A model generated the notes under the pieces. That model made no database searches. It saw only the letters and a list, made by a program, of their open reading frames with translations, and was not told where the DNA came from. DNA of 61,690 bases from a virus (taxonomy: Duplodnaviria; Caudoviricetes): IMG/VR virus record IMGVR_UViG_3300011430_000002, positions 1 to 61,690 of that record, one strand, 5' to 3'. The position numbers and the translations under genes are program-made. Positions 428-57,977 of this stretch are shown in pieces; the stretch's first letter is position 1; every line of letters begins with the position of its first letter.

Positions 428-456
428 ATCATACCATGTATCAGTAGCTGTGTCAA
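428..456 (-). promoter_or_regulatory. Sigma70-type promoter
   Basis: TTGACA-17 bp-TATGAT with extended TGn, upstream of the AAA+ operon. Confidence 0.8.
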
Positions 457-783: not shown

Positions 784-1490
784 ATCGCACCTCCTGCCTT
801 CAACGCTGCCGTGATGTCGGCAACATTCACGCTCAGTGCCTTCTCGATGGGAGCAGGGGGATGCGGAATGAACCGCTCGCCCTCCGGCCACACTTCAATC
901 AATCGCTTGGTGGTCTTCACCTCACACAGCAACCGTTTCAAGTTCCACGCAGTTTCGGAGCGTGCATTTTTGTGCTTGCCCATATCCCCATAGGCTTCCT
1001 TGATGGTGATGAGGGACTTCTCCGATGCCGCCTTGTAGGTACGGTCGGGGTGCTCCTTCGTCATCTCGGCCTTGACTGCGGCGAGGCACACGAAGGTGTT
1101 GCAGGCGTGCGGGAAGGCATGGAAATTCGCCGGCAGTTTCACGTACTGGGTCAGCCGGTCCAGCGACACATCGTAGGAATCGAATTGATACTTGCCGGTG
1201 TACGCACACAAGGTGTGGCTACGGGACTGGTAGTGTCCGTGCTGCTGCCAACCCTTGGGCAGGCAGCACCACAGGTTCAGTGCGTGCTCGTTGGCAGCGC
1301 GGAACAGTGCCCACCACGTGGTGAAGTAGAGCAACTCAGCAGCCTTGATTTCCTCCTCGTACAGGTTGCGGGTGGCAAGGTGAATGATGTCGTTGCGCAG
1401 GGTGTCGTCAATGCGCCGGGATTTCAGTGGCACGTGCTTGGCAGGCGCCACCTTCGGTGCGGTCTTGGTCTTGCGCTTGGTCGTGGTCAT
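780..1490 (-). CDS. Nmad5-like (nucleotide modification associated domain 5) protein
   Basis: C-terminal LCEVKTTKRLIEVWPE..F.P pattern recalled as typical of Nmad5; strong RBS. Confidence 0.55.
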   Translation of the reverse strand: MTTTKRKTKTAPKVAPAKHVPLKSRRIDDTLRNDIIHLATRNLYEEEIKAAELLYFTTWWALFRAANEHALNLWCCLPKGWQQHGHYQSRSHTLCAYTGKYQFDSYDVSLDRLTQYVKLPANFHAFPHACNTFVCLAAVKAEMTKEHPDRTYKAASEKSLITIKEAYGDMGKHKNARSETAWNLKRLLCEVKTTKRLIEVWPEGERFIPHPPAPIEKALSVNVADITAALKAGGAM

Positions 1491-2248: not shown

Positions 2249-2443
2249 TTACTCCTTGTTATCGTCCAGTTGGTAGAGAATCTCGGCAACCTGCTCATCA
2301 GTGAGCGTAGGCGCCTCGGTAAAACAGGTGGCGTCACGCACATAGTGCAGCCAGATACCGTGGGCAATGAGCATGCCCAGCACCATGCTGAGCACCAACA
2401 GAAGCCCGTCCAGTGACTTGCGGTAGGTCTCGTCATAGTTCAT
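2249..2443 (-). CDS. Small membrane protein
   Basis: Hydrophobic LLLVLSMVLGMLIAHGIWL segment; ATGA overlap with upstream gene. Confidence 0.6.
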   Translation of the reverse strand: MNYDETYRKSLDGLLLVLSMVLGMLIAHGIWLHYVRDATCFTEAPTLTDEQVAEILYQLDDNKE

Positions 2444-2646
2444 GCCAGTGGCCCCCACAAGGTGCCAAGCACGCGCACCAGTGCGATGAGTGCTATGGTC
2501 ACGAAAGCAGCCAGCATCTGCCGTCCGCGTGCACGGTGTTTGCGCTCTTGCTCCAGTCGCATGTTGCAGACGTGTTGGTAGTCACGCGGTGCCGGTGGGA
2601 TGGATGGACGTACTCGGGTGGCGTTCGCCAGTGGGTTGGTGTTCAC
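2440..2646 (-). CDS. Small membrane protein
   Basis: GTG start with AGGAG RBS; C-terminal hydrophobic helix. Confidence 0.55.
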   Translation of the reverse strand: MNTNPLANATRVRPSIPPAPRDYQHVCNMRLEQERKHRARGRQMLAAFVTIALIALVRVLGTLWGPLA

Positions 2647-2684
2647 GTTCACTTGCTCCTGCTTGTTGGTGGTGGGGGGCCAGA

Positions 2685-2699
2685 TGTTACTCAGTAACA
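2685..2699. promoter_or_regulatory. Palindrome copy 2
   Basis: TGTTACTCAGTAACA, intergenic. Confidence 0.7.
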
Positions 2700-2771
2700 G
2701 CGGCCGGAAAAAAGGCAGACACAGCCCAACCCGCCCCAAGTGGGGCAGGTGGGTGGTGGTGGGTTGGTAGG

Positions 2772-3020
2772 TCAGGCGGCGGCGCTACGTGCCAGTGCCC
2801 ACACCTTGTCAGCGGCACGCGCCTCGCGCACCAACTTGGCGGCAGCGGCGGCCTTCTGGAACTTGGCCTTGCACACCTTGCAGTGCGCGGCCGACACCTT
2901 GTGCATGCACAGGCCCAACATGGGCAGCTCCCGTGCGTCGTTCGGCAGGATGATGACACCGGTGACGCTACCGCGCACCAGTCCGTGCTGGCTCTTGTTC
3001 ATGCTCTTGCTCATGCTCAC
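2772..3020 (-). CDS. Small basic protein, possibly Zn-binding
   Basis: CMH...HCKVC motif, Ala/Lys-rich tail. Confidence 0.55.
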   Translation of the reverse strand: MSMSKSMNKSQHGLVRGSVTGVIILPNDARELPMLGLCMHKVSAAHCKVCKAKFQKAAAAAKLVREARAADKVWALARSAAA

Positions 3021-3075
3021 TTCCCTCGTGCTGTGGGCGCCGCACCATGCAGCGCACCTTGATTCGATTGGCCGA

Positions 3076-3090
3076 TGTTACTGAGTAACA
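3076..3090. promoter_or_regulatory. Palindrome copy 3
   Basis: TGTTACTGAGTAACA, intergenic. Confidence 0.7.
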
Positions 3091-3197
3091 CTTGGCCTTG
3101 GGGGCATAGCTCCCCCTTGCCCCCTTGTGGGGAGGCTTGGGCGCTGCACTCAAGCAGCGGGGTAATGCCTACGGCATTGGGCAGATGTCGCTGAGCA

Positions 3198-3212
3198 TGT
3201 TACTCAGTAACA
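3198..3212. promoter_or_regulatory. Palindrome copy 4
   Basis: TGTTACTCAGTAACA, intergenic. Confidence 0.7.
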
Positions 3213-3221
3213 TCTGGCCAA

Positions 3222-3245
3222 TGCCGCCCCCCGAAGGGGGCGGCA
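3222..3245 (-). terminator. GC-rich hairpin right after the 222-aa gene (terminator or processing site)
   Basis: TGCCGCCCCCC-GAA-GGGGGCGGCA; no clear U tract. Confidence 0.4.
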
Positions 3246-3251
3246 GCGGGG

Positions 3252-3920
3252 TTACGACTTGGCAATCTTCCGAAGGAAGGTCGCCACCTCGGCACGGTAT
3301 GCCTTGGTCCATGCCTTGTCCCCTTCGGGGAGACGGGAGAGCAAGCCTTCGGCTTGGTGCTTGAAGGTCACGTCGGCAACTGGGCCATTCACCTTCGGTG
3401 ATTTGGTGTCAGAGCGAGGCGACTCGGCTTTGCCGGGGATGATGGGCTTACCTGCCTTGGCAGCCTTCTTGGCTGCAGCCTTGGCCTTGCCCTTGGACGT
3501 TCCTTCGGAACGTGCCTCAGAGACCGGGATGAGGTCAGCACCAAGCTCTCCGAGCTTGGTCAGCGAGCCGGCGGCAACCTGTTCGGCGAAGCCGGTACGC
3601 TTGGCGAGGATGGCAGCCAAGGCAGCTTTGCTACGGCAGCGGTACTGCCGCCACGTGCTGCCGGAGAATCCGGCACTGTCCCAGCCCTTCCGGGCTTCAC
3701 CCTTGTGGTCGAAGACCACACGGTCGAACTTGTCGATGAAGGCCAGCAGGGCCTTGGTCGGCTTGCCTTCGGCATCCACGGCGTCACCAGTGAACTGGTC
3801 GCTGGCCTTGGACAGCGAGCCGACAAACAGCGAGTCCAGACGGACACCGAGCTTCGTGATGGTGGTGCCAAGGTTCTTGGCAATCGGGGCGAAATTCCAC
3901 TTCGTGGCAATCGTGGTCAT
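3252..3920 (-). CDS. First early gene; Ala/Lys-rich hypothetical protein
   Basis: 222-aa ORF, AGGAG RBS, histone-like KAKAAAKKAAKAGK segment. Confidence 0.75.
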   Translation of the reverse strand: MTTIATKWNFAPIAKNLGTTITKLGVRLDSLFVGSLSKASDQFTGDAVDAEGKPTKALLAFIDKFDRVVFDHKGEARKGWDSAGFSGSTWRQYRCRSKAALAAILAKRTGFAEQVAAGSLTKLGELGADLIPVSEARSEGTSKGKAKAAAKKAAKAGKPIIPGKAESPRSDTKSPKVNGPVADVTFKHQAEGLLSRLPEGDKAWTKAYRAEVATFLRKIAKS

Positions 3921-3941
3921 GGTGCACTTGCTCCTAGCTGG

Positions 3942-4403
3942 GACAGCGGCGGGATTGCTGCTGTCGATTTTTGCTGCCGGTTCTGGCCGGCCCCCCCTCT
4001 CTTAGCCGGGGGTCACTTCGTTCCCCCCGGCGAGAGGGGGGGACAGACCCTACGGGTCTGAATGATTTTCGGGGTCGGCGGCGACAAGGGGGCAAAATCC
4101 CTTCAGCCCAAAGGGCTGGGGTGCTGTTACTGAGTAACATCGACTCAGCCCAAAGGGCTGGGGGTCGGGTCATGCACACAGCAGGGCAAAGCCCTGCCAG
4201 TCCACCCATTGCTATCCACTTGTGGATAGCGATGGGGCTGCTTGCCCCCTTGGGGCAAGGGAGGTTGAGGGCAGAGGGAGACGCGGCGGCCTTACAGGCC
4301 GGGTTCGGAAGCGACGCCGCTACGCCCCGAAGGGGCGGGTTTTGGGCGCCGTTTCGCCTTCACGCGGCGTCGGCCCGGGCAGGACGGCCTGCAAGGCAGG
4401 CCG
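3942..4403. other. Dense array of hairpins and inverted repeats (structured RNA or ssDNA element)
   Basis: At least 10 stems, many with C(N3)G loops; see findings. Confidence 0.6.
4125..4139. promoter_or_regulatory. Palindrome copy 5
   Basis: TGTTACTGAGTAACA flanked by two direct copies of TCAGCCCAAAGGGCTGGGG. Confidence 0.7.
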
Positions 4404-4430
4404 AGCGGCCGCGCCGGTTCGCATCGTGTA

Positions 4431-4458
4431 ATTATGCCCCGATTACGGATGCGGTCAG
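4431..4458 (-). promoter_or_regulatory. Candidate leftward (early) promoter
   Basis: CTGACC-16 bp-CATAAT. Confidence 0.4.
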
Positions 4459-4554
4459 GGGGTTAAGATAGCCTTCCTGATACCGGAACTTGATAGGCCC
4501 GTGAGTTGGCGAACGGGCAGTTGAAGAGAAAAACGCCCCGACACCGCAGACCCT

Positions 4555-4905
4555 TGATACCATTTTAGGCAGCTGTGCTACCATTTTTCGACCTTTGCTA
4601 CCAAGCTTTGCTACCACCCAATAATGAATGTAATCAGTAACTTAGCGACCAATTATACCAATGTTCCGCTTTTTTTGCTTTTTAAGGGACCCCCCTTAGA
4701 CGTTTGGGGTGGAAATTTACGGAAAACGAAAAAATGCCCTGTTATTTAACCTGATACTCACTACTGATACAACCACTCTCTTATATATATACCTTATAAA
4801 ATAATGGTAAAAAAGGTAACAAAGGTAACAAGGGCTGAGCCGGCCGTTGATTTCATTGAGATTTGCTTTGTTACCACCAGCGACACAAAGGTAGCAGAGG
4901 TTGCC
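4555..4905. other. Putative replication origin
   Basis: AT-rich core; TACCA iterons on the left, inverted GGTAAC/GGTAGC iterons on the right; IHF-like AATCAGTAACTTA at 4632-4644; at the strand divergence point. Confidence 0.55.
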
Positions 4906-4906
4906 C

Positions 4907-4935
4907 TTTACACCTTGCCAAAACCCCTGTAAACT
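4907..4935 (+). promoter_or_regulatory. Candidate rightward promoter
   Basis: TTTACA-17 bp-TAAACT upstream of the first + strand gene. Confidence 0.45.
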
Positions 4936-4970
4936 GCCCATTCCACCCTACCACCCACCGAGAAACGACT

Positions 4971-5222
4971 ATGAAATCATGCACTTGTAAGCTAGGCCCT
5001 CTCAACTCCATCAGTGCGTGGCAATACGTGCCCCATAGCACCGAGAAGGTACCGGACGGGGTAAAAACCCACACAGGTACTCGCGGCACCGAGGCGCTGG
5101 TAGCCCGCGACGACGGAATCGTGTTAGTGGCTTTGCCTATGGACTGGGTTGTTTCGATAGACAACGGCAATCTGATGGTTTTGCCCGACTATGCGTTCCG
5201 CGCCCTGTTCCGCATCGACTAA
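4971..5222 (+). CDS. Small hypothetical protein
   Basis: 83 aa from ATG 4971; AWQY...DWVV...G.L.V.PD..F pattern. Confidence 0.6.
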   Translation: MKSCTCKLGPLNSISAWQYVPHSTEKVPDGVKTHTGTRGTEALVARDDGIVLVALPMDWVVSIDNGNLMVLPDYAFRALFRID

Positions 5223-5288
5223 GCCCGGCTTGACCAAAGCTAGGTTCAGGAATAGGGTAGTTTTCCCCATCCCCAGTGGAGAACTGCC

Positions 5289-5453
5289 ATGACCCTAAGA
5301 CTGATTTTCTGGATTTTGATGCTGCTCTGGTTGGTTGGTGTATTCGCCGGTCCCCGCATCGGCCCATGGGCGCCGATGGGCAGCAACATCTTGTTGTTCG
5401 TGCTCCTGCTCATCTTGGGCTGGGCCGCTTTTGGGCAACCCATCCAAGGTTGA
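5289..5453 (+). CDS. 54-aa two-TM membrane protein (holin candidate), absent from the ORF track
   Basis: GGAG RBS; MTLRLIFWILMLLWLVGVFAGPRIGPWAPMGSNILLFVLLLILGWAAFGQPIQG. Confidence 0.7.
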   Translation: MTLRLIFWILMLLWLVGVFAGPRIGPWAPMGSNILLFVLLLILGWAAFGQPIQG

Positions 5454-5577
5454 CGACCGCCAACAGCCGGCGTAATCTGGCCTCTGGGTCAGTTGTTCGC
5501 ACCGCGCATTTGTTTGGGGGGTAAGACTGCTGCTGTGACGGGTTGGGGTTCGGCCCCTACAAGTCGGCATCAGCACT

Positions 5578-5625
5578 AGCCCCATAGGCTCGCTATCCCC
5601 TTGCTGCCTATGGGGCTTTTTATTT
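5578..5625 (+). terminator. Intrinsic terminator
   Basis: 12-bp stem AGCCCCATAGGC/GCCTATGGGGCT followed by TTTTATTT. Confidence 0.7.
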
Positions 5626-5728
5626 CCCCACCAAACCCCCTCTTGTTCCCCTACGACAGTGTGGTAATCTAGCCGCGCTAGTAGTACGTGCCATCCATCG
5701 CAATCAACGCACAAGCGGGAGGTTCGTC

Positions 5729-6130
5729 GTGACGCACAAAGTTTCATCTTCACACTTTCGCGGCCCCGGTTTCGTCCAGCGGCTGGCGAAGAAAATCCAA
5801 GGTCAGTTCCGTGTCACCTACTCGGTTGCCGTCGAGCGGGCCAATGCCGCGTTGGGTATCGACGTGGTGGTGCTGGAGGAAACTCTCGCCGCCCGCGCCG
5901 CTGAGCGTGCCAAGGCCGCCCCCCAACCTGAACCGGAAGCCAAACCCACCTCGGAACCCAAGGCCAAGTCCAAGGGCAAGCCCAAGTCCGAGCGGGCCGA
6001 AGAGTTGGAAGGCCACACCGTGGCGGAGCTTGTGGAGTTCGCCCGTAAGTCGGAGTTTGAAGGCTACAGTGGCTTGAACAAGGCTGAGTTGATTGCCTTC
6101 ATCATCGACGCCGAGGAGGAACAATCATGA
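5729..6130 (+). CDS. Rho N-terminal (HeH)-like domain protein
   Basis: C-terminal LEGHTVAELVEFARKSEFEGYSGLNKAELIAFI; GGAGG RBS. Confidence 0.7.
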   Translation: MTHKVSSSHFRGPGFVQRLAKKIQGQFRVTYSVAVERANAALGIDVVVLEETLAARAAERAKAAPQPEPEAKPTSEPKAKSKGKPKSERAEELEGHTVAELVEFARKSEFEGYSGLNKAELIAFIIDAEEEQS

Positions 6131-31572: not shown

Positions 31573-34500
31573 GTGGCCGACCCACTTTCCAACTATGGCT
31601 CGTATGCACTGCCCGATTTTTCGGACCTGTTGTTCAGTGCGGCCGAGGACACGGGCTTGGATACGGACCTGCTGGCCTCGGTCATGGAAGCCGAAAGCTC
31701 GTTCAATCCCCGAGCTGTTTCCAGTGCGGGTGCCCGTGGCCTCATGCAACTCATGCCGGATACGGCTGGCCAGCCGGGTTTCGGTGTGGAAAAGTTCGAC
31801 CCCGACTTGCCGCTGGATGACCCAACGGAAAATGTTCGCGTTGGTTCTCAGTACCTGAAGGGTCTGCTCAATGCGTTCAACGGTGACCTTGACGCCGCGT
31901 TGGTAGCCTACAACTGGGGTCCGGGTAAAGCCCAGAAGTGGGTGGCCAACGGCTCTGATTTTTCCAAGCTCCCCGCTGCAACGCGCAAGTACGTGAACGA
32001 CATCAAGGGCAAGGTCGCGGCGCGGAAGCAGGCGGCCGGTACCACCCCCGCCGGTGCTTCCACCTACCAGCCCTTGGACCCGTGGGCGGATGTTTCTGCA
32101 ACGGGTGCCGTGGATACGGCGCCCGTGTCAGGGTCAGTCGCCGTGGACCAGCGTAGGGCTGACATTGCTGAGCGGCGTGCGGCCTTCAACGAGCGTTTGC
32201 AGCGGGACCCGGAAGCGGCCCGGCTGAATCTGCCCACGGAAGAAGGCGACGAAGAGGAACCCATTGGCGCCGGCCAGTGGCTCAAGGACCAAGGCGAGTG
32301 GGCGGCCAAGGCGTTGTACTCCAGCGTGGTGGACCTCGGGTCTTTGCTGGCTGACCTCGCTGACTTCGGGATGGGACCCGACAGCGGCCTTACCGACCGG
32401 GTGTCAGCGAAGCTGGAGAACCACGCCAACCGGGTTCGCCAGTCCCTGCCCGATTACATCCGCAAGGACTTGGCCAACGAACTCATCACCACGGATGCAA
32501 ACGGCGAGCTGGACTTCCACATGCCGAATTTGCGGCAGGTGGCCAACCTCGTGTTTGAGTCCGCCGCTCCGTCCGGGGCAATTGTTGGTGGTGGCAAGGC
32601 GCTGCTCAAGGGCGCGATGACCATCAACAAGCTGAAGAAGGTCATCAAGGCGTCACCCGGCGTGTCCAACGCCCTTGCCTTGGGCACCGCCAACAGCGCC
32701 TATGTCACGGCCGACACCTACACCACGGTGTACGACGACGTGAAGGAACAGGCCCAGCGCGAGGGCAAGTCGCTCAAGCAAGCCAGCGACGAAGCGGCGC
32801 GTGCGGCGTCATTGGCGGCCGGAATTATTGCCCCCTTGTCGTTCGCCACCGGCGCGGCTGGCGAGGGGTTGGCAGCGACCGGGGCCACCGTCTACCGTAG
32901 GCTGGCCAAGGGCTTGGCCTATGGCTCCATCACTGAAGCGCCCGAGGAATCCGGCCAGTACGTGGCCGAGGAACTGGGACGCGGCAAGTCGCTGGCGGAA
33001 ATCGACAAGGGCAAAGCCTTGGAAGCGGGTCTGCTTGGTGCCCTTGGCGCCGGCCCGACTGAAGGCGTGCTGGCTGCGCTGTCTGGCGACACGGGTGCGC
33101 CGGCTCCGGTGGATGATGTTCCACGTGAAACACCATCCGGCCGCATGGAACAGTTGGAACTGTTCCCGAATCTCCCTATCGACCAGTTGCCAACGCTGCC
33201 CGGTGAGCCGCCCGCTGGCCCGCCCCCCGGCGCACCGCCCTTCAATCTGGAAGGTCCCAGCACCATGGAGCAGCTGGAGCTGCCCCTGATGCCGCTGGAC
33301 CTGCAGGGTCCGCAGGGTCCGCAGGGTCCGCAAGGTCCGCCGGAACAACTGGAGCTGCCCTTCCCGACCCCGCCGAATCCAGCCATCGCCGCCGGCGTTG
33401 CCGACATGGAACAGGCGTTGGATGCGGACCCCAACTTGCCCAACGCAGCGGACGCGCTGAACGCGCCGTCCCCGGAACAGTTGGGTATGTTCGCTCGTGC
33501 CCGGGCGAAGTTGGATATAGAGCGGCGGGACGATGAGGATGAAGTAGGCGCCACGCCAGAATTTCTGGAGTTGGGTGAGCAGGACGAGGACCAGTTGTGG
33601 GAAGACCAGCAGGCGCTGATGAAGAACAGCGCCTTTGAGGCGGGCCTGTCCATCGTGCCCAAGGAAACGCTGGCTTCGCTTCCCAACGTGTCGGTACGGG
33701 ACGCGGAGGAAATCGACCGTAGGTTGCGGCCGACCATGCCCGACCCCGAGTTGCGCTCGTTGGTGGTTGAGCAGCAGCTGGAGGTGCTCTCGGAATATCG
33801 CGGCGAGTTCCCCAACGCGACCCTTGACGAAGCGTTGGGAGCGCCCCGCGCCACTGGCTCCTTGTCGGAAACGGAGGTTGAGCCTGAGTTTGAAATTCTG
33901 ACCGACCAGTTCGGTGAGCAGGAAGAACCCCCGCAGCCCCTTGAAGTGGGGGAACTGGCCCCAGTTGTTGACCTTGTGCAAGCTCGGGCACGGGCGCAGG
34001 CGGGGGAATCGCGTAGTGAGGAAGTTGGCTCTACACCCAGCCCGGATACGGGCACGCCTACTGAAAAAGTCCATGACGAGCAGCAGGCAAGAGAAGACTA
34101 CATGCGGGTTCGGGCGCGTTTGAATCCTGATTCCCTGCATGTCCTTGATAACCTGACTGCGAACGAAGTTCTGGCTATGGTGCAGAGGGAATGGGCTACG
34201 CAGGGTCAGTCTGGTAATCCGCGTAATCCCGCTGCTGTCTATCGGGCTGTCGCCGCACGGTTAAACGCTGCCGCTGCACGGGTAAACAAGGCCGCCACGG
34301 CGAAGCCGGCCGAGAAGCCGGCGAAATGGGACCCGCTCACGGATGACGGGTTCGCGCAGGAGATTATCGACGACGAGGGCGGGGCGGGGATGCGCCTGCT
34401 CAACGCTGGTTACACGGAAGAGCAAGCCGACGAGGTAATCACCAAGGTGATGTCGCGCTTTGTCGGTCGTAGGCTGCAGGAAGCCCGTGAGGATGGTACC

Positions 34501-37500
34501 CGGTCACGGATGCGCAACCTGCGCCAGCCGGATGAAGGCCAGCAACGGCTGCAAGTGACCCGCGAGCAGCCGGCCCGCAACGACTTCGAAGCGCGGTTGG
34601 AACAGTTCGCGGATGAGACAGGTACGCCGGCTGACCCAGCGGCAGTTGCCGAGGCGGTGCAGGAACCCGACGGCCCCAAGGTGCAAAGGGGCGACGTGCT
34701 GGACTTGGTGCACGGCACCGCCGAGGACTTCAACCTGCACCAGTTCCCCGCTGGCAACCGGGGGTCAGGGTTGTGGTTCACTGCCAACGAGACTTCAGGG
34801 ACCCGCTATGCTCAGCAGGGCGCCGGCCCCCGCCCGCGTCGCATCGTCGCCCGGGTCGTGCCCAAAAACCCGCTGACCCTTGCGTGGCAGGACGAGTGGT
34901 TTGGCAATATGGCCGAGTACGAGCGGGTGGTGTGGGAGGCTCGTGAGGCGGGGTATGACCTGATTGCCTTTGTCGGCGTGCAGGAAAGTTTCGGCCCCGA
35001 TGAGGGTGGTGCTCCCGGCCGTAGGTCCACTGAATCCCCGAGGCAGGGCATCCCGGGGGTGAACAACTATTACGTAGTGCTGGACCGTACCATCCTCTCG
35101 CACCGCCCCGGTGCCAACACGTTGGCATTGGCGCCAGAGCCAGAAACTGCCCCGGATGCGGGACCCGCGCCGGCACAGGCTGAGCTGGATTTGCAGGGTG
35201 GTGCGGGTGCTGCGCCTACCGCACGTACGGCACCGCCCATGCGCACACGCGGGCAGGCCGCCGCCGAAGCTGCCGCCCCACCTGCCCCGGCTCCCGCTCC
35301 GGCGCCAGAGCCTGCTCCCACAGCCCCCGTCACGCCCCCGGAGGACCTCAAGGGGCAGCTGCAGGCGGCCCGGGATAGGTACGCCGCTCGTCGGGCGCAG
35401 GTTGCCGCTGCAGCCGCTGCCAATGCGCCCGCCCCTGTCCCCGTTGGCACCAGTACGCCAGCCAGACCCGCCCGTGCGCACGTCTACTACCCGCGTAGGC
35501 GCCTGCAGCGGGCGATGAACGCGAGGTTCTCGGATAATAGGCAGGACCGGGCGTTCCGCGCCGGTATCACGCCGGAAGAGTTGGAGCGTAGGTATCGTGC
35601 GGTGGCTCGCGACGTGATGGCAGCGCCGCGTTTCAACACGCTCACCGAGACGCAGCAGATTCGCGAAATCATCGACCAGACGGTGCGTACCTTTGACAGT
35701 GGCGCCACGACCCGAGCGGCTCCCGCGCCGGCGCCTACACCGGCACCCACTTCCGTGCCCGCCACGCCCGCGTCTACCGGCTCCGCGCCGGAACAGCAGT
35801 TCACGCAAACTGTGCACAGCACGATTCGCGATTTTACGTTGGGGCCGTCTTATGCGTCGGACTTTGTTTCCGGCTTGGTGGCAGCGGGGCGTACGCTGGA
35901 GGAAGCTGCAGCGGAACTGGGTTTGCCACCCCCCACAGGTACTGACCCTAATGATTTTTGGGGCGGTACGCTAGGCCCAGTAAACGTCACCCGTGTGGCT
36001 GCTGACCAGACAACCACGGCACCGGGCGTTGCGGGGCGGGTGAACCAGACTTCCTACTACATCATCACGTTCTCCAACGGGGCCAAGGTAGCCCGCATCG
36101 GTGGTACCGGTAGCATGAATCAGGCGCTGCCGCGTAACCAAGGACTGGGTAAGCAGCAATACGCAAACTTGCTCACGCACCTATTTGAAAATGAAGGCGT
36201 GAGCATCCTGCTGTCGGATTCCACCAACCTTCCGGGGTCGGCACAGTTGTACGCGGCTTTGAAAGTGGCCGGGTGGGATGTGGTCGCCAACCCATCCAGC
36301 TATGAAGTTCAGCCCGGCCACCCTACCACCACGGTTTACCCGCGCTTGGGTAACTGGAACTTCGCCGTGGTCAGCGGGCCACCCGTGCAGCCCCAGCTGC
36401 TCACCTCGCGAGCCTATGGGGCTACCCGTGGCTCGCCGCTGGCTGTGGTGCGCGGGACGGCCGCTGTACCCACGTGGCCGGGCAAGACTCCTGAAGCGGC
36501 AGAAACCGCTGACACCGGGCCGCCCACGGACCCGACGCAGCTGGAGCTGTTTCCCGGTAGCACGCCACCGCCGGCGCATGCAGTGGCGGCGCCCGAGGCT
36601 ACAGGTGCCCAGAGGACTGACCCGACGCAACGGTCATTGTTTCCCCTAGATACCCCGCAGCCGGTGACGACCGAGGAGATGGATGAGGCGCAGAAGTCTG
36701 ACGCCACCGCTGCCGACGCGACGTTAAGGGGCGCCCCCGCTCCCGCCCAGACGGTAACGAATACTTCACCCGATGCGGTGGACCCTGACTCGCAGGAGAA
36801 ACTGGCCGAGGCGGAAGATAATCTCACCGGTGCCAACGATGGCGGTGAGGGTGGTGATGGCGGGGATGGTGGTGGCCGTGGCCCGGATGACGCCAGCGAG
36901 TCCAGCGACATGCCCGGTGACCGCGAGGTCTCTGAGTACCAGACCAATCAGGCCCTCAATGATGTCATCGACGCCCACTCAGGTCGGTGGTCAGATGTCT
37001 GGCACTACTGGTTTGCCGGCTCCACCAAGGCGCGTGGCTACCATCGCGGCCAGCGGGCTACCCCCGAACAATCCACGGCGCGTGGCGACGTGCTTGCACG
37101 TAGAGCCTTCCGTGAAGAACTGACGGCGTGGAAGAATCGCCGGCGCCTTGCGGAGAAGAACGCCCGGGCGCAGGGGCAGCAAGACTTCCAGTTCACTGAA
37201 CCCCGGCCCTTACTGCCCAGCCAGCGCCGCGAAGCCAACGACGCCGGTGAGTTCAACTGGGATGAGTTCCGCACCTTGGTCAAGCGTGCACTGGGGCGCA
37301 CCAAGGTCCGGTGGATGGAGCGTTTGGTGGACCAGCACTACTCCATCAAGCTGATTCAGGAAGTGCTGGCCGACGAGAACGGCTTCGTGAATTCACCGGT
37401 GGACCTGTACGAGTCACTCACTCGCATCGGTTCCAAGATTGACGTGCGGGTGAAGAAGTTCCAAGGCAAACAACAACGTGCCATTCAGGACGTTGCCAAC

Positions 37501-40275
37501 ACGATGGGAGCGACCTTTCAGGAAGTAAACGACTTCGCCGCCGCCCTGCACTCACTGCAGCGCAACGGCTACATGTTCCGCCGCAACTTGGAACAGGGGC
37601 TGGTGCCGCACGCCTATGACCCGGACCCGGACAACGACGTGGTGGGATATTCCGGCATGTCCAACAAGCAGGCCCACGACCTGCTGACCAAGATGGAAGA
37701 GCAGTACGGCCGGGAGAATCTGGCCGCTCTTGAAGATGCCATCTTCGACGCTGCCCAGTTCGTTCGCGCCGAGTTGGTAGCCGGCGGCCTCATTGGCGAG
37801 ACGCAGCAAGGCAACTGGCACCCGCACCCCAACGGCGACACGTACATCCACGACCGCTACAAGGAGTTGCGGGATTCGCAGGGCTACAAGGCGGCGATGG
37901 ACCCAACCAACTATGACATGGCGCGGATTCCGGCCAAGGATGTACCGGGCGTTGACTACACCGAGGACGAGGCCAAGAACGCCACGTTGATGGACACGCT
38001 GCACAACATCACCTATGTGCCGTTGTCCGACATTCGCACCCCCGGCGTGGTTGAGACCATCCGCCAGCAGCTGATGGCCAAGGCTGGCGCCAGCTTCTAC
38101 TCCGAGTACGACGTGTGGGGCGACGACATTGGCAAGGCGTATGGCCGGCAGACCTCTGGTCCCGCCTTGTCGGCAGTGACGCACCTGCTGCAGCACGGCC
38201 AGCAGGCCATCATCCGTGGCGTGCACAACACCGAGCAGGGCGCTCGCATCCGTGCCTTGGTCGCTGAGCTGGACGACCCGTACTTCGCTGTCACCTTGCC
38301 GACAATGAAGGAGGGCTACTACAACATCCCGGGGAACATCAAACGGCAGCTGAACTTGCACTTCACCAACCGTGGCCTGCCACCGCCGGCGCTGCCCACC
38401 ATGGACATCGACCTGCTGACCTTCCGTCACAAGCAGGGCGACAACTCGACACCCACCGTCATTCTCGACTTGGGCATGGCCAACGCGCTGACCAACAGCT
38501 TCTCCGGTGCCAACGTGAAGCGAGTGTTCAACGCCTTTGGCAACTCGTCGTCATGGGTGCGCAAGTCCATGACTGCGTGGTCGCCGCCGTTCTGGGCGAC
38601 CAACTATGTCCGCGAGGTGTGGAACGCAAAGATTCAGGCGCGGGGCATCAAAGGGCTGACCGATGAACAGCGTGCGGCGGTTGCTGCCAAGGCGGGTTTC
38701 GGCGAATCCTTCAAGTGGGTGAAGACCATCTTCCAGCAGATGAAGGACCCGAACTTCGACCCCAGTACATTAACGGACCCCGAGGAACGCACTCGTGCCG
38801 AGGTGTTCAAGAAGATGCACGAGGCCGGCATGACTTCGGAGTTCTTTCACATCAAGGACATCACCGAGCTGGAGCGTGACCTGACCCGCATTGAGCGGGA
38901 GCTGAACCGGCCGGGCAAGAACACCATGGCCAAGACCCGCGAGCTGTTCCGCTCGCTGGCGCAGAACCTTGAGTTGATTGCCAACGTGTCGGAAAACGCG
39001 GTGCGCATGTCGGTGGCTGCCGAGGTGTTGGCCCAGACCGGCAACGTGGAGTTCGCTGCCAGTGTGGGCAAGGACTTGTCCGTCAACTTCCAGCGGTACG
39101 GTACGTGGGGGTCGGCCATCAACAGCCTGTTCTTCTTCTACAACCCCACCATTCAGGGGCTGTACCGTGCCAAGCGTGCACTGCATCACAAGGATGTAAG
39201 ACGCATCGTGGTTGGCGCCACGGTGTTTGGCGCCATGATGCCCATCATCAACCGGATGATTGCCGGCGAGGACGATGACGGCCGGAACTACTACGAGGCG
39301 GTGCCGCACTGGAAGCGCAACACCAACTTCATCCTGATGATTCCCGGCGGCGAGGGGCGGCACATCTCCATCCCCCTGCCGTACGTGTGGAACCTGCCGT
39401 ACGCCCTGTCCGAGAAGCTGGTGGATTCGCTCACTGCTTCTGACCAGCTCAGTGGCGCCGAGAAGGCAAGGAGTATTGCCGGCCAGATGGTTGGGCTGAC
39501 CATAGAGAACATCTCGCCGTTGTCGTTCTCTTCCAAGCACCCGGTGCGGTCGGTCGTTCCCACCATGTTGCAACCGGGGTACGACGTGCTGACCAACCAG
39601 ACGTGGTTTGGTGGCTACATCAACCCGGCCAAGAATCAGTTCGCCGCAGCGCCAGTGACCGATGCCTTCAACGTCAAGGACCCGGACACCAAGCAGAACT
39701 GGCAGGCGCTGTCGCAAGCCATGGCCATTGGCGGCAGCAAGTACGAGGAAGGGCTGATTGACGTGTCACCGGGCACACTGGAATACCTGTTCGGGTATTA
39801 CACCGGTGGCGTCGGTACCTTCATGACGCGAACCTTCGACACCGTTGCCGCCGTGGCGACACCGGGCGACGGGAAAACTTTCGAGGATGTGGTGGCCAAC
39901 GCGCCCATCCTGCAGCGGGTCTATGGGCTGGGCAAGTTTGAAGAGGCTGACCGCGACCGCTACTACCAGCTGCGCACCGACATGGAGTCCGTGCTGAACG
40001 TGGAGAAGGATTTACGAGCAGCCCGTGACATCGCTGGCATGAAGATTTTCAGGGCCAACGAAGGGGACCTGTATTCAACCGGCGTCATCAGCCGGTACAA
40101 GAACACGGAGCGCATGGTGGACAACCTGCGCCGTGCCCGCAACAAGTTGGTGAAGCAGGCCAACAAGTCGGAAGCGACCAAGCGCCGCATTGAGCAGCTT
40201 GATGACCGGATGACCAAGTTGATGACGCGGTTCAACCGGTACTACTATGAACGCATCACCAAGGAGAGTTTCTAA
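31573..40275 (+). CDS. 2900-aa polyvalent internal virion protein: SLT lytic transglycosylase, ART-like, GNAT-like and LPD38-like domains
   Basis: ESSFNPRAVS.AGARGLMQLMP and AYNWG (SLT); HGT...GLWFT...KNPL...GYD (ART-like); RNQGLGK...LSDS (GNAT-like); YEAVPHWKR...ISIPLP (LPD38-like). Confidence 0.85.
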   Translation: MADPLSNYGSYALPDFSDLLFSAAEDTGLDTDLLASVMEAESSFNPRAVSSAGARGLMQLMPDTAGQPGFGVEKFDPDLPLDDPTENVRVGSQYLKGLLNAFNGDLDAALVAYNWGPGKAQKWVANGSDFSKLPAATRKYVNDIKGKVAARKQAAGTTPAGASTYQPLDPWADVSATGAVDTAPVSGSVAVDQRRADIAERRAAFNERLQRDPEAARLNLPTEEGDEEEPIGAGQWLKDQGEWAAKALYSSVVDLGSLLADLADFGMGPDSGLTDRVSAKLENHANRVRQSLPDYIRKDLANELITTDANGELDFHMPNLRQVANLVFESAAPSGAIVGGGKALLKGAMTINKLKKVIKASPGVSNALALGTANSAYVTADTYTTVYDDVKEQAQREGKSLKQASDEAARAASLAAGIIAPLSFATGAAGEGLAATGATVYRRLAKGLAYGSITEAPEESGQYVAEELGRGKSLAEIDKGKALEAGLLGALGAGPTEGVLAALSGDTGAPAPVDDVPRETPSGRMEQLELFPNLPIDQLPTLPGEPPAGPPPGAPPFNLEGPSTMEQLELPLMPLDLQGPQGPQGPQGPPEQLELPFPTPPNPAIAAGVADMEQALDADPNLPNAADALNAPSPEQLGMFARARAKLDIERRDDEDEVGATPEFLELGEQDEDQLWEDQQALMKNSAFEAGLSIVPKETLASLPNVSVRDAEEIDRRLRPTMPDPELRSLVVEQQLEVLSEYRGEFPNATLDEALGAPRATGSLSETEVEPEFEILTDQFGEQEEPPQPLEVGELAPVVDLVQARARAQAGESRSEEVGSTPSPDTGTPTEKVHDEQQAREDYMRVRARLNPDSLHVLDNLTANEVLAMVQREWATQGQSGNPRNPAAVYRAVAARLNAAAARVNKAATAKPAEKPAKWDPLTDDGFAQEIIDDEGGAGMRLLNAGYTEEQADEVITKVMSRFVGRRLQEAREDGTRSRMRNLRQPDEGQQRLQVTREQPARNDFEARLEQFADETGTPADPAAVAEAVQEPDGPKVQRGDVLDLVHGTAEDFNLHQFPAGNRGSGLWFTANETSGTRYAQQGAGPRPRRIVARVVPKNPLTLAWQDEWFGNMAEYERVVWEAREAGYDLIAFVGVQESFGPDEGGAPGRRSTESPRQGIPGVNNYYVVLDRTILSHRPGANTLALAPEPETAPDAGPAPAQAELDLQGGAGAAPTARTAPPMRTRGQAAAEAAAPPAPAPAPAPEPAPTAPVTPPEDLKGQLQAARDRYAARRAQVAAAAAANAPAPVPVGTSTPARPARAHVYYPRRRLQRAMNARFSDNRQDRAFRAGITPEELERRYRAVARDVMAAPRFNTLTETQQIREIIDQTVRTFDSGATTRAAPAPAPTPAPTSVPATPASTGSAPEQQFTQTVHSTIRDFTLGPSYASDFVSGLVAAGRTLEEAAAELGLPPPTGTDPNDFWGGTLGPVNVTRVAADQTTTAPGVAGRVNQTSYYIITFSNGAKVARIGGTGSMNQALPRNQGLGKQQYANLLTHLFENEGVSILLSDSTNLPGSAQLYAALKVAGWDVVANPSSYEVQPGHPTTTVYPRLGNWNFAVVSGPPVQPQLLTSRAYGATRGSPLAVVRGTAAVPTWPGKTPEAAETADTGPPTDPTQLELFPGSTPPPAHAVAAPEATGAQRTDPTQRSLFPLDTPQPVTTEEMDEAQKSDATAADATLRGAPAPAQTVTNTSPDAVDPDSQEKLAEAEDNLTGANDGGEGGDGGDGGGRGPDDASESSDMPGDREVSEYQTNQALNDVIDAHSGRWSDVWHYWFAGSTKARGYHRGQRATPEQSTARGDVLARRAFREELTAWKNRRRLAEKNARAQGQQDFQFTEPRPLLPSQRREANDAGEFNWDEFRTLVKRALGRTKVRWMERLVDQHYSIKLIQEVLADENGFVNSPVDLYESLTRIGSKIDVRVKKFQGKQQRAIQDVANTMGATFQEVNDFAAALHSLQRNGYMFRRNLEQGLVPHAYDPDPDNDVVGYSGMSNKQAHDLLTKMEEQYGRENLAALEDAIFDAAQFVRAELVAGGLIGETQQGNWHPHPNGDTYIHDRYKELRDSQGYKAAMDPTNYDMARIPAKDVPGVDYTEDEAKNATLMDTLHNITYVPLSDIRTPGVVETIRQQLMAKAGASFYSEYDVWGDDIGKAYGRQTSGPALSAVTHLLQHGQQAIIRGVHNTEQGARIRALVAELDDPYFAVTLPTMKEGYYNIPGNIKRQLNLHFTNRGLPPPALPTMDIDLLTFRHKQGDNSTPTVILDLGMANALTNSFSGANVKRVFNAFGNSSSWVRKSMTAWSPPFWATNYVREVWNAKIQARGIKGLTDEQRAAVAAKAGFGESFKWVKTIFQQMKDPNFDPSTLTDPEERTRAEVFKKMHEAGMTSEFFHIKDITELERDLTRIERELNRPGKNTMAKTRELFRSLAQNLELIANVSENAVRMSVAAEVLAQTGNVEFAASVGKDLSVNFQRYGTWGSAINSLFFFYNPTIQGLYRAKRALHHKDVRRIVVGATVFGAMMPIINRMIAGEDDDGRNYYEAVPHWKRNTNFILMIPGGEGRHISIPLPYVWNLPYALSEKLVDSLTASDQLSGAEKARSIAGQMVGLTIENISPLSFSSKHPVRSVVPTMLQPGYDVLTNQTWFGGYINPAKNQFAAAPVTDAFNVKDPDTKQNWQALSQAMAIGGSKYEEGLIDVSPGTLEYLFGYYTGGVGTFMTRTFDTVAAVATPGDGKTFEDVVANAPILQRVYGLGKFEEADRDRYYQLRTDMESVLNVEKDLRAARDIAGMKIFRANEGDLYSTGVISRYKNTERMVDNLRRARNKLVKQANKSEATKRRIEQLDDRMTKLMTRFNRYYYERITKESF

Positions 40276-45793: not shown

Positions 45794-47401
45794 TCAGACT
45801 CCTAACGTCTCTTCGTACAGTTTCAGGATGCCAGCTTGCTGGCGTTCTCGGTCCCTCAGTATCCCGTAAGCACCCCATTCCAGCTTGTTGGCGCCAAGGT
45901 GGATGATGGACATTTTGTGCGTCTGTCCCGGTCTGGCCATCCGTTCGTTGGCTTGGGTGTACTGCTCGGTACTGAAGATTGGGTTGAACCAAATGATAGT
46001 ATCAGCACATGTCAGGTTCAGTCCATGGCTGGCGGTCTTCGGCTGGGCAACAAGGACCTTGGGGTCATCGTTGTCCATGAAGGCGGTGAGGATTGTGTCA
46101 CGTGCCTTGCCTGTCACGTCACCGCTAATGACGGCGTTGGTTATCCCCTGCTTGGTAAGGTACTCGGACACCCGGTCCAGTGCCCGGCGGAAGGACACAA
46201 ACACAATGACCTTGCGGTCGCTCTGGTTGATGCACTCTTCAAGCACATTCAAGCGGTCGGGCATGGAGATGTTGGCGAACTTGCCATACTCCCCGTACAC
46301 GCTGCCGCAGCAGATTTGCAGCAGCTTGCTCATCTTCACGGCGGCATTGACGGCGCTCACTACCACCCCGTTGCCAAGCTCATCGAAGGTCTCGGCCTTC
46401 AGTGACCGTTCCATTTCAAAGTAGGAACGCGCCTGCTCACCGGACAGCTGCACCTCCCGGTCCATGTAGGTGACCGATGGCAGCTGGATGCAATCCTCTT
46501 TCTTGAACCGCACGGCCGGCTGCAAGTACGTGCGTACCACCGCCTGCGCGTTGGCCCTCGGGCGCCACTTGAACGAGCTGACCTTCACTTCCACCATGTC
46601 TTTAAAGCGGGTGAAGGACAGGGGCATCCCCTGCGGGTTGGTCTCCGCGTTGAACGGGTTGACCAGCCGGCCCATTGACCAGCAGTCGGACGGTGCGTTG
46701 GGCGTGGGCGTACCGGTGAGCAGCCACAAGCGAGGGGCGATGCGCTGCACCAGTTCCTTCAACTGCCTGAACCTACGAGAGCGTGGGTCCTTGATGGCTG
46801 TCGCCTCGTCGTAGACGATGAGGTCGATGTCGCCCCTTGCTGCCAACGCGTCGGCCACGATGTGCAGCCCATCGTGGTTGACCATGAAGATGTCCACGTC
46901 CAGTTCCTTCACCATCTGCAGGCGCTTGGCGCGTGGTCCGTGGAGGATGCCCACCGTGCGGCTCGGCGTCACGTTGAATACTTCCCGCTCCCACGTGACC
47001 CGCATGGTGGAGAGTGGGCACACGACCAACACCTTGCGCACCAACCCTTCCTGCTTGAGATGGTCCATGGCCCACAGGGCAGAGGCAGTCTTGCCTGTCC
47101 CCATGTCGTTAAGGCACAGGTTGCGGTAGTTGAGGGTGAGGAACTCGGCGGTCACGCGCTGGTGGTCGAAGGGTTTGTAGCGACCCGGCCAGCTGTAGCG
47201 GGTGGCGATGGTGCTGGGCACAGTCAAACCCATCCTACGAGTGGCTGCCACCGTGTCGGAAGTGTGCGGCGCCGCCAGCATCAGCTGCCCGTTGGTCTCA
47301 ATGACCTTGCTCGCCTTCACGTTGCGAAGGAAGCGGGCCACGTCCGACGTGTCGGGAAACAACATCACCGGCCGGTGCGGGTGGAGTACAACATTGGTCA
47401 T
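45794..47401 (-). CDS. SNF2-family DNA helicase
   Basis: DMGTGKT, YDEA, LTGTP, HGLNL and QANERMARPGQ motifs. Confidence 0.93.
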   Translation of the reverse strand: MTNVVLHPHRPVMLFPDTSDVARFLRNVKASKVIETNGQLMLAAPHTSDTVAATRRMGLTVPSTIATRYSWPGRYKPFDHQRVTAEFLTLNYRNLCLNDMGTGKTASALWAMDHLKQEGLVRKVLVVCPLSTMRVTWEREVFNVTPSRTVGILHGPRAKRLQMVKELDVDIFMVNHDGLHIVADALAARGDIDLIVYDEATAIKDPRSRRFRQLKELVQRIAPRLWLLTGTPTPNAPSDCWSMGRLVNPFNAETNPQGMPLSFTRFKDMVEVKVSSFKWRPRANAQAVVRTYLQPAVRFKKEDCIQLPSVTYMDREVQLSGEQARSYFEMERSLKAETFDELGNGVVVSAVNAAVKMSKLLQICCGSVYGEYGKFANISMPDRLNVLEECINQSDRKVIVFVSFRRALDRVSEYLTKQGITNAVISGDVTGKARDTILTAFMDNDDPKVLVAQPKTASHGLNLTCADTIIWFNPIFSTEQYTQANERMARPGQTHKMSIIHLGANKLEWGAYGILRDRERQQAGILKLYEETLGV

Positions 47402-56904: not shown

Positions 56905-57288
56905 TCAAGCGGGTGCGGGTAGAGTACCTCGCACACGTGCCCACCACTCACGCTCGTACTCGGCGGATGCAGAGTGCAGCGTGGTACCGGTGATGGGTAC
57001 CCCGTTCTCTATCAACGCGTTGTAAAGGGCAGCGGTGGCTACCGCTGCGTCAGCAGCGAACCATTCCAGTCGCTTGTGCAGCCCGGCCTTGATGAGCGTG
57101 CGGTGCACGCTCGCCTCGACATACGGCAGCACCGTCTTCGGCGTCACCTGCAAATCCAGATGCACCTCCCAGTCGTACGGTGAGCCGGTGTCCCAGTCGC
57201 CGATGCGCTTGTGCACTGACCTCGTGGTCATGCCAATCTTGATGAAGCCATGCCCGTTGGGCTGGCCCACGATGTAGATGTTAGACAT
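56905..57288 (-). CDS. GIY-YIG / T5orf172-type domain protein
   Basis: IYIV...IKIGMT..V.KRI....TGSP...E..VH......R.EWF. Confidence 0.85.
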   Translation of the reverse strand: MSNIYIVGQPNGHGFIKIGMTTRSVHKRIGDWDTGSPYDWEVHLDLQVTPKTVLPYVEASVHRTLIKAGLHKRLEWFAADAAVATAALYNALIENGVPITGTTLHSASAEYEREWWARVRGTLPAPA

Positions 57289-57601
57289 CGACCTGCTCCC
57301 CTCTCGCTGTCTTCACGGTGGTAATCAGCCGGCGCATGTTGCGTGTCGTCTTGATGGCCTCACGGTACTGCGCATAGTGCATCCCTCCGCAGAACAGGGC
57401 GATGACGGACAGGGTGAGCGTCCACGAGGAACGGTTGCCCGTCGCAGCGATGACCAGATACAGGCCCATTGCTGTCCACATGAGGGTAAGCAGAACGTGC
57501 TTGCCAACCAGTCGTAACGACTGGTCACGCACATCAACTGCACGTTGTATCAGTTGGTCGGTTGCTTCGATGTTCATTTCAACTTTCGTTGGGTCGCTCA
57601 T
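57281..57601 (-). CDS. Two-TM membrane protein
   Basis: Likely start MSDPTK with AAGGA RBS; two hydrophobic helices. Confidence 0.65.
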   Translation of the reverse strand: MSDPTKVEMNIEATDQLIQRAVDVRDQSLRLVGKHVLLTLMWTAMGLYLVIAATGNRSSWTLTLSVIALFCGGMHYAQYREAIKTTRNMRRLITTVKTARGEQVDV

Positions 57602-57644
57602 GGTCTCGGTGTTCCTTGTCGTGTGGTTGTAAGGGAATCCGCTG

Positions 57645-57776
57645 TCAATCCCAGCGGTAGAAGTAAAGCCAGCCTCGGTCTTTCTGTTGCCTTCTCCAGC
57701 AGCGGGGGTTGGCGAATCCACCACTGGCATACCAGTTGCGCTTGCTCATGCGCTCACTGCCTACATTCGTTCGCAT
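57645..57776 (-). CDS. 43-aa basic, aromatic-rich protein, absent from the ORF track
   Basis: AAAGGAG RBS; MRTNVGSERMSKRNWYASGGFANPRCWRRQQKDRGWLYFYRWD. Confidence 0.6.
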   Translation of the reverse strand: MRTNVGSERMSKRNWYASGGFANPRCWRRQQKDRGWLYFYRWD

Positions 57777-57974
57777 GACCCTGCTCCTTTGCTTCACGTT
57801 GTAAGGGGGTAAGGCATCCTGCCCTCGCCGGCTATCAACGAGGCGTCAACCTCAACCGGGTCATGGGGCAGGATTATTTGTGGCTGCATCCCCACGGATT
57901 TATGACTCCACTCCGGTGGGTCCGTGGTTTGCGTTTAACTGGCGGCCACACGCCAGCAGGAAATGTCCCACCGG
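57774..57974 (-). ncRNA. Candidate structured RNA with pseudoknots
   Basis: Five or more complementary segments in crossed order; see findings. Confidence 0.5.
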
Positions 57975-57977
57975 GCG

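Follow-up and report, generated by a model that had tools for sequence, protein, structure and literature searches.

The complete genome of a virus of the class Caudoviricetes (IMG/VR record IMGVR_UViG_3300011430_000002), whose 61,690 bases constitute the window analysed here, contains a stack of short hairpins in a 940-nt gap separating two divergent gene blocks, and the question raised by this locus is in which nucleic acid, on which strand and to what end these hairpins might act. The gap comprises a GC-rich half (3921-4460), in which the stack lies, and an AT-rich half (4550-4830). An initial annotation, made from the sequence alone, had described positions 3942-4403 as a non-coding fold selected on the + strand, either a large non-coding RNA (ncRNA) or a DNA control element. 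We favour, tentatively and with somewhat less than even confidence, the reading that the stack consists of stem-loops in the leader of an early leftward (- strand) transcript, with an operator palindrome embedded among them. That the stack is non-coding is indicated by a flat GC content over the three codon positions and by frameshifting indels of 1 and 2 nt in a near-identical strain, represented by the metagenome contig L019.

With a perfect hairpin defined as a stem of at least 6 bp with a loop of 3-8 nt, the interval 3921-4420 was found to contain 14 perfect hairpins, compared with an average of 1.18 ± 1.11 over 1000 dinucleotide shuffles, none of which exceeded 7; outside 3000-4420 there are 125 hairpins, about one per 500 nt, which is near the density of shuffled sequence. 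Ten of the 14 carry 3-nt loops (31 of 125 outside 3000-4420), ten are closed by a 5'C-G3' pair (outside, 41 C-G versus 37 G-C closing pairs among the 125), and the stems are mostly 6-8 bp long. Folding against dinucleotide shuffles, a check suggested by the initial annotation, also came out in its favour, with z-scores between -6.8 and -8.5 overall, among them -6.81 (+) and -7.59 (-) for RNA and -7.35 and -8.00 with DNA parameters. All ten stems originally listed were recovered where they had been placed, both by reading the sequence and by a scan for perfect stems, including the identical C-AAA-G pair at 4104-4118 and 4146-4160 on either side of the palindrome at 4125-4139; a further hairpin, at 4287-4301, was absent from that list (Table 1). 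No sequence is common to the hairpins: comparison of the stack with the genome (blastn-short) returned only copies of the TGTTAC palindrome and a few words of 12-14 nt, and apart from a duplicated 18-nt unit no stack hairpin has a copy elsewhere in the genome. Exact-pattern scans of viral contigs with two stack words gave no match for either, and a scan of genome contigs with a stack word likewise gave none. The 18-nt unit had no exact match in viral contigs and 16 scattered single matches in genome contigs, from unrelated bacteria and one archaeon, which is close to chance by an arithmetic estimate; these counts do not fit repetitive extragenic palindromic (REP) elements or host-derived repeated palindromes.

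Table 1. Coordinates of the hairpins and associated features in the window.
Feature	Position	Strand	Description
Second small hairpin cluster	3000-3251		10-bp hairpin 3222-3245, two more hairpins, palindrome copies at 3076 and 3198
P0001, first leftward early gene	3252-3920	-	222 aa, ORFan; 10 perfect hairpins
Hairpin	3942-3965		9 pairs, one G.T on + strand; loop GGGATT; T5 run after it on + strand
Long GC-clamped hairpin	3991-4042		imperfect in the window: 7+4 pairs, 3-nt bulge, 8 pairs
Hairpin	4044-4060		7 bp, C-TAC-G
Hairpin	4104-4118		6 bp, C-AAA-G; first copy of duplicated 18-nt unit; loop AAA changed to GAA in L019
Palindrome	4125-4139		15 bp, TGTTAC-TGA-GTAACA; one of 5 genome copies
Hairpin	4146-4160		6 bp, C-AAA-G; second copy of duplicated 18-nt unit
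Hairpin	4181-4197		7 bp, C-AAA-G
Hairpin	4205-4236		14 pairs, one T.G; core 4211-4230 of 8 bp, loop CTTG
Hairpin	4241-4259		8 bp, C-CTT-G
Hairpin	4287-4301		6 bp, T-TAC-A
Nested hairpin	4312-4372		outer helix 4312-4320/4364-4372 of 9 perfect Watson-Crick pairs, enclosing 4323-4337
Inner hairpin	4323-4337		C-GAA-G; then GGTTTT on + strand
Hairpin	4385-4403		8 bp, C-AAG-G; would be first stem-loop of a transcript starting near 4424
Sigma-70-like leftward promoter (predicted)	4431-4458	-	CTGACC-16-CATAAT, 9/12 consensus
AT-rich zone	4550-4900		GC 0.35-0.46; half-site repeats TG(C/T/A)TACC and GGTA(A/G)CA

The extent first assigned to the element proved too narrow, in that 3942-4403 is indeed hairpin-dense but lies within a zone running from 3000 to 4420, where 29 hairpins were counted against 2.78 ± 1.68 expected. 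This zone takes in the first leftward early gene, P0001, whose ten hairpins compare with 1.11 ± 1.03 expected from shuffles. Synonymous shuffles of the gene held a mean of 2.22 hairpins and a maximum of 6 (0 of 500 reaching ten), 500 permutations of its codons gave a mean of 1.38, and four control genes of the window showed no hairpin excess in the same tests; the hairpin excess of P0001 depends on synonymous codon choice. The P0001 product had no match among phage records (tblastn) and only its own cluster in a search of 5.8 billion proteins, and no related loci for P0001 and a 412-aa protein were found in viral contigs. The 250 nt behind the gene hold 5 hairpins compared with 0.55 expected, one of which, at 3222-3245, presents a C(UUCG)G loop on the - strand. 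Farther along the leftward genes, at 57000-61690, a milder excess was observed (17 perfect hairpins versus 6.80 ± 2.64, with a maximum of 15 among 300 shuffles).

Comparison with L019, which covers the region at ~94% identity up to window position 4436, revealed how the hairpins vary between strains. Among 50 differences in 3000-4436, only one of the 29 stems is touched, at an outermost pair, whereas circular shifts of the same differences touched a mean of 8.0 hairpins and never fewer than two (0 of 1436 shifts gave one or none); purifying selection thus appears to keep the hairpin stems. A hot spot of strain variation was found in the arms of the long hairpin at 3991-4042, where 12 of the L019 differences fall. 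Here TCTC/GAGA is replaced by ACAT/ATGT and GCC/GGC by ACT/AGT, so that five pairs are changed on both sides, and the 3-nt bulge of the window is paired, giving 21 perfect pairs; these compensatory pairs were read directly from the comparison of the two sequences. Because stems are depleted of strain differences and one stem is changed by compensatory pairs, the hairpins are selected nucleic-acid features rather than products of chance. Elsewhere, window 794-1483, a segment holding a gene with an Nmad5 domain (780-1490), is replaced in L019 by an unrelated stretch of ~400 nt between flanks that are 94-99% identical, which we read as a cassette replacement between strains.

Whether the selected hairpins are parts of a single folded molecule is a separate matter. 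The initial annotation had joined them by enclosing helices into multibranch junctions, and both of the pairings it invoked exist (3971-3982/4073-4084, with 12 pairs of which 5 are G.T, and 4312-4320/4364-4372), but the junction architecture is not above chance. With 12 hairpins kept and the 245 linker bases shuffled, the minimum free energy (MFE) was -301.6 ± 6.6 (+) and -271.1 ± 6.3 (-), compared with slightly weaker native values of -292.0 (+) and -260.7 (-). Since linker-shuffled sequences fold at least as well as the native one, the stack is a string of independent hairpins with long-range pairing no better than chance; it comprises ~12 independent, mostly perfect short inverted repeats and is not one folded molecule. 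Nor does Rfam lend substance to a large ncRNA: the whole window gave no match at gathering thresholds, and 3000-6000 searched at E<=1 returned only Pab91 (E 0.48, 22.5 bits against a gathering score of 71).

The contention that the region folds best on the + strand also failed under paired controls. The difference MFE(+) - MFE(-) was -31.3 for the native sequence and -29.7 ± 6.8 in 150 paired shuffles (shuffled MFE -238.7 on the + strand and -209.0 on the - strand), a z-score of -0.23 that became -0.14 with the hairpins kept, and the lower + strand energy is due to base composition (G 184, C 149, T 90, A 77). Imperfect pairs had been described as mostly G.T on the + strand, yet when the 29 stems of 3000-4436 are followed outward, the first pair that is not Watson-Crick is G.T in 5, A.C in 5 and another combination in 19, and internal single mismatches are too few to decide the strand (two G.T, one of them in an alternative pairing). 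With no strand bias in paired shuffles, DNA folds or stem-end mismatches, the + strand does not stand out as the selected fold.

A functional + strand product, namely an antisense or non-coding RNA, or a pre-primer RNA directed toward the AT-rich zone, is accordingly hard to credit, and we regard it as very improbable. The + strand is rich in G+T and has the lower raw MFE, T-runs follow three of its hairpins (3942-3965, 4044-4060 and 4323-4337), the internal wobbles of 3942-3965 and 4205-4236, as well as the five in 3971-3982/4073-4084, are G.T on this strand, and the L019 difference A4084G preserves the last of these pairings on the + strand only. Set against these points are not only the shuffle-like strand difference, the balanced stem-end mismatches, the chance-level long-range helices and the Rfam result, but also the absence of a + strand promoter-like site upstream of the stack, the number of terminator-like sites in 2400-5400 (8 compared with 4.0 ± 2.1 in shuffles), and a TT-to-AA change of L019 at window 3968-3969 that breaks the GATTTT/AAAATC extension of the + strand helix. 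Further candidates were tried and rejected: a CsrB/Rsm-like decoy RNA (GGA motifs lie outside the loops, and there is no Rfam match), a ColE1 RNA II-like pre-primer on the + strand (no + strand promoter found), and a retron or an element like the diversity-generating retroelements (no reverse transcriptase in Pfam and PHROG scans of selected open reading frames).

Related phages provide a second view of the locus. By capsid protein, the closest cultured relatives, at 29-36% identity, are Pseudoalteromonas phage vB_Pun_Y3, Stenotrophomonas phage StenR_269, Xanthomonas phage DES1 and Pseudomonas phage Rollin. A far closer relative is G001, a complete 55.7-kb genome whose capsid protein is 83% identical and which is collinear with the window from 15 kb onward; its early region is not alignable, and within the GC-rich half the only aligning block is window 4397-4456. 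Over its first five leftward genes, spacers included, G001 nevertheless has 21 hairpins where 3.37 ± 1.86 would be expected, and two of the five genes are individually enriched relative to synonymous shuffles; the leader folds less strikingly (z -2.5 and -4.3). The window and G001 thus have the same hairpin-rich property despite unrelated sequence.

How might such hairpins act in a leader? The single GC-rich block that aligns with G001 contains a predicted leftward promoter at 4431-4458, from which the leader would be transcribed, and the hairpins would act in the RNA. A transcript from this site would start near 4424, meet its first hairpin at 4403, cross the stack and reach the start of P0001, with its Shine-Dalgarno sequence at 3931-3935 and ATG at 3918-3920; the - strand end of the hairpin at 3942-3965 lies 6 nt before that Shine-Dalgarno sequence. 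The stack would then be the untranslated part of the 1.4-kb hairpin-dense zone (3000-4420), a zone that begins ~20 nt downstream of the promoter and extends over the 5' leader and P0001 into the gap that follows the gene; the hairpins would act one by one as local stem-loops. A hairpin at the 5' terminus might protect the transcript, others might serve its processing or stability (the long stem at 3991-4042 is similar to an RNase III-type site), and the hairpins might also control termination or shield the C-rich untranslated leader of 500 nt from Rho or nucleases. Intrinsic terminators of the leftward unit were considered and rejected: none of 12 stack hairpins is followed by a U-run on the - strand, and a terminator scan gave only + strand sites inside the stack.

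Several observations favour this leader reading. The stack lies between the promoter-like site and the start signals of P0001, and the hairpin excess follows the transcription unit into coding sequence; premature terminators are absent from the - strand; a loop of RNA type, C(UUCG)G, is found behind the gene on that strand; the stems are conserved relative to L019, and G001 has a comparable hairpin density with unrelated sequence; and the hairpins are independent and show no strand bias. Other observations weigh against it. Nearly all pairs in the stems are Watson-Crick and none is G.U on the - strand, and the loops are mostly of 3 nt (UUU, CUU and UUC on the - strand), which is atypical of selected RNA hairpins; both features suit DNA palindromes at least equally. 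The promoter matches the consensus at no more than 9 of 12 positions. No comparable stack, and at most a weak excess, was found at the equivalent place in G006, a relative with a capsid protein 73% identical (7 hairpins versus 3.3 expected), in DES1 (6 versus 2.05) or in StenR_269 (4 versus 2.4), and the element is therefore not essential to the clade. Finally, the ends of the StenR_269 record, set with PhageTerm according to passages of its description (PMC10747016), fall within the equivalent divergent intergenic region, which by analogy points to a possible role at DNA ends.

If the leader reading is true, the locus is an extreme example of a phage early transcription unit whose local secondary structure is under selection, with 29 perfect hairpins in 1.4 kb, about ten times expectation, some of them built by synonymous codons. 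The same density in a relative with unrelated sequence suggests a general requirement of the early phase in a little-known clade of podophages with an N4-type capsid, for which mRNA survival, termination control, and DNA-level events at an origin or genome end are candidates. The zone is notable for the density of its hairpins, for reaching into a gene, and because what is conserved is the hairpin-rich property and not the sequence.

In the leader reading, the palindrome within the stack would be a DNA operator, lying inside the leader, for a dimeric regulator encoded by the phage. Its five copies, TGTTAC-TSA-GTAACA, all lie in the leftward early region (386-400, 2685-2699, 3076-3090, 3198-3212 and 4125-4139). 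The central base flips among copies, all of which precede leftward genes, and also between strains at 3083; with its central base free, the palindrome is two-fold symmetric, as for duplex DNA bound by a dimer rather than a strand-specific hairpin. We therefore read 4125-4139 as a putative operator-like site of a dimeric DNA-binding protein. One copy (386-400) lies ~22-36 nt downstream of the presumed start of a near-perfect sigma-70 promoter, TTGACA-17-TATGAT at 428-456 (- strand), with TG before its -10 hexamer; in G001, a similar -10 element was observed before the gene homologous to that behind this promoter. In G001, a different palindrome with the same 6-3-6 shape, TGCTAA-NNN-TTAGCA, occurs eleven times, mostly with a terminator-like hairpin on one side and the Shine-Dalgarno sequence of a leftward gene on the other, and in both phages modules of hairpin and palindrome recur at gene boundaries, preceding leftward genes. 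Half-sites related to each palindrome recur in the AT-rich zone of the respective phage, and it looks as if each lineage has its own dimeric regulator, with sites co-varying with it.

The explanation that competes most directly with leader stem-loops is that the inverted repeats act in DNA, as cruciforms or as folds in single-stranded DNA serving replication initiation or priming, packaging, or genome-end processing. We consider this unlikely, while granting it appreciable weight. In its favour, the stems are Watson-Crick palindromes with hardly an imperfection, equal on both strands, their 3-nt loops are minimal and their closing pairs are biased toward 5'C-G3'; the adjoining AT-rich zone with its repeated half-sites is consistent with it too. 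The change of the 3991-4042 hairpin block by block in both arms is as expected from hairpin-templated copying, and StenR_269 (genome GC 49.7%), whose record ends in the equivalent region, closes with ~190 nt of GC-rich sequence that holds C-runs, G-runs and small hairpins and adjoins an AT-rich stretch; the order of structural genes, AT-rich stretch, GC-rich patch and early genes there matches that of the window. GC-rich hairpins beside AT-rich repeats also recall single-strand initiation (ssi) signals and G4-type origins, and one stem holds CCGAAGG, the core quoted for ssiA in excerpts of PMC13037366. In the same excerpts the extra-stable GNA type of triloop is tied to origin and ssi hairpins, whereas here it is found in one of ten triloops on the + strand and two of ten on the -, one of those two being C-G closed, and there is no strand specificity. 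Also difficult to reconcile with a DNA-level role are the persistence of the excess over 900 nt that lead away from the AT-rich zone, through a gene and past it, the lack of a stack at the same place in G006 and DES1, and the position of the end repeat of the window, which lies inside early genes and looks like an assembly overlap rather than a physical end.

In another reading, the hairpins do little in themselves and are a by-product: palindromes that template switching made and homogenised in a frequently unwound region, or boundary modules (terminator hairpin plus operator) left behind by gene cassettes moving in and out, like the PeSL cassettes of T4-type phages. The stack is lineage-specific and partly hypervariable, as seen in Logan contigs of four DNA metagenomes: two alleles of 3921-4095 occur together in two of the four (X5 and X14, depths 5.9 versus 7.5 and 7.5 versus 8.6), and contig depth is uneven, with 4281-4456 at 52.9 and 33.6 in two of the four compared with flanks at 4.4-9.6 and 5.3-6.6 (in run X14, the unitig for 4066-4271 has depth 4.4 against the 52.9 of 4281-4456). 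A depth 5-6 times that of the flanks implies that more genomes in those samples carry this core, which contains the promoter-like block, than carry its flanks. The hairpin and palindrome modules at gene boundaries of the window and G001, the different segment carried by L019 at 794-1483, and the duplication of the 18-nt hairpin unit around the palindrome would fit such an origin as well. We nevertheless judge it distinctly unlikely. Stems strongly depleted of strain differences, inside the gene too, and hairpins built by synonymous codons are unlike neutral debris; moreover, the stack contains a single operator copy, and its hairpins, the duplication excepted, have no copies elsewhere in the genome.

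A more specific proposal was the analogy with phage N4, whose early promoters are template-strand DNA hairpins read by a virion-delivered polymerase. According to passages of PMC4496689, N4 has three early promoters, hairpins with a conserved sequence from -17 to +1 that are recognised by a virion polymerase of 3500 aa, and their loop is a C-G closed 3-nt GNA on the template strand (also in excerpts of PMC13037366). The resemblance lies in short stems, 3-nt loops, C-G closing and an early-region location: compared with the 5-7 bp stems and 3-nt loops of N4, ten of the 14 perfect hairpins have triloops, with stems of 6-8 bp. In addition, the capsid protein belongs to the N4-gp56 family of the relatives, one C-GAA-G loop occurs on the template (+) strand, and the StenR_269 authors, in passages of their report (PMC10747016), speculate that their giant protein is a virion RNA polymerase. 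Beyond stem and loop sizes the analogy breaks down. The hairpins have no conserved sequence, their + strand triloops (TAC, AAA, TGA, AAA, AAA, CTT, GGG, TAC, GAA and AAG) include GNA once in ten, and twelve hairpins with no genes between them are not how promoters are laid out; in the one hairpin-like element that is repeated, the central base flips among copies before leftward genes, so that the element is read as symmetric duplex DNA, and a perfect sigma-70 promoter precedes one copy of it.

No polymerase was found in sequence-level searches of the 2900-aa virion protein (31573-40275), in keeping with the earlier remark that no RNA polymerase gene was seen. Its only Pfam matches are SLT at the N-terminus and LPD38 near the C-terminus; it contains no cysteine and has long low-complexity linkers rich in Ala, Pro and Glu. 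Against PDB sequences it matched lytic transglycosylases only, with no match to an N4 polymerase chain, and its PHROG matches are all of unknown function. The polymerase motifs R...K......[YF]G, D.D[GA]D, a longer NADFDGD-like form and [HY]D[SAC] were all absent, which is a weak test. Homologues of the C-terminal ~1100 residues (1790-2900) carry LPD domains together with ART-PolyVal, helicase and methyltransferase domains, and presumably correspond to the 'polyvalent proteins' of Iyer and colleagues. N4-type promoters are therefore the least credible explanation of the stack, and in our judgement extremely unlikely; this phage lends no support to the speculation, made in print, that giant virion proteins of this kind are RNA polymerases, and the analysis does away with an appealing but unsupported connection to the hairpin promoters of N4.

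The stack belongs to the stem-loop-rich early control regions; its nearest known counterparts are the T7 early leader, the PeSL cassettes and the N4 promoters, and none of these families fits it. The early region of T7 reportedly has host promoters followed by an RNase III stem-loop before the first gene, as described by Dunn and Studier in 1983. As in T7, a non-coding leader of several hundred nucleotides separates the first host-type early promoter from the first early gene, a long imperfect stem stands shortly before that gene, and stem-loops occur between early genes; however, T7 has a few long RNase III sites in place of ~12 short perfect triloop hairpins, is not known to have a hairpin excess within its first gene, and shows no sequence relation to the stack. 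The PeSL cassettes of T4-type phages, as portrayed in excerpts of PMC4122927, similarly combine a stem-loop with promoter- or operator-like sites in small composite motifs that recur where small early genes meet; the region that holds them is variable, and strains differ in it by segment replacement (here 794-1483). PeSLs are repeated homologous sequences, whereas here the palindrome alone is repeated and the hairpins are unique. It is also conceivable, but very unlikely in our estimation, that selection built the zone (leader plus first gene) as a dedicated nucleic-acid device of the DNA that acts first in the cell, and did so independently in two lineages whose sequences are unrelated. In one form, hairpins of unwound or single-stranded DNA would be the start signals of an as yet unrecognised enzyme that enters with the 2900-aa virion protein; in the other, the zone would time transcription or ejection by slowing entry until the product of the first gene has been made.

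In the wider genome, leftward genes run from 3920 to 1 and then around the circle from 61,690 to 41,063, and rightward genes from ~4863 to 41,060. Products include a T4-type large terminase, a family A DNA polymerase, an SNF2 helicase, a DUF2201 protein, a primase-like protein of 1061 aa and a portal/adaptor-like protein. The 123 bases common to both ends of the record (1-123 and 61568-61690) fall within the leftward block, inside genes, and the end repeat of G001 falls at a different, non-homologous place, also within genes; the two repeats thus have the look of overlaps left by the assembly of a circular or permuted map and not of physical ends. A blastn search of 3000-6000 against phage records gave no match. 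The AT-rich zone at 4550-4900, as flanking context, could be an origin or promoter region. Although the AT-rich zones of the window and G001 otherwise align poorly, both contain the word ACCCCCCTTAGA (window 4689-4700; G001 46546-46557), and AAAACGAAAAA and CCTGATACC are likewise common to the two; a similar word, TTTCCCCTTTAGTA, is present in G006.

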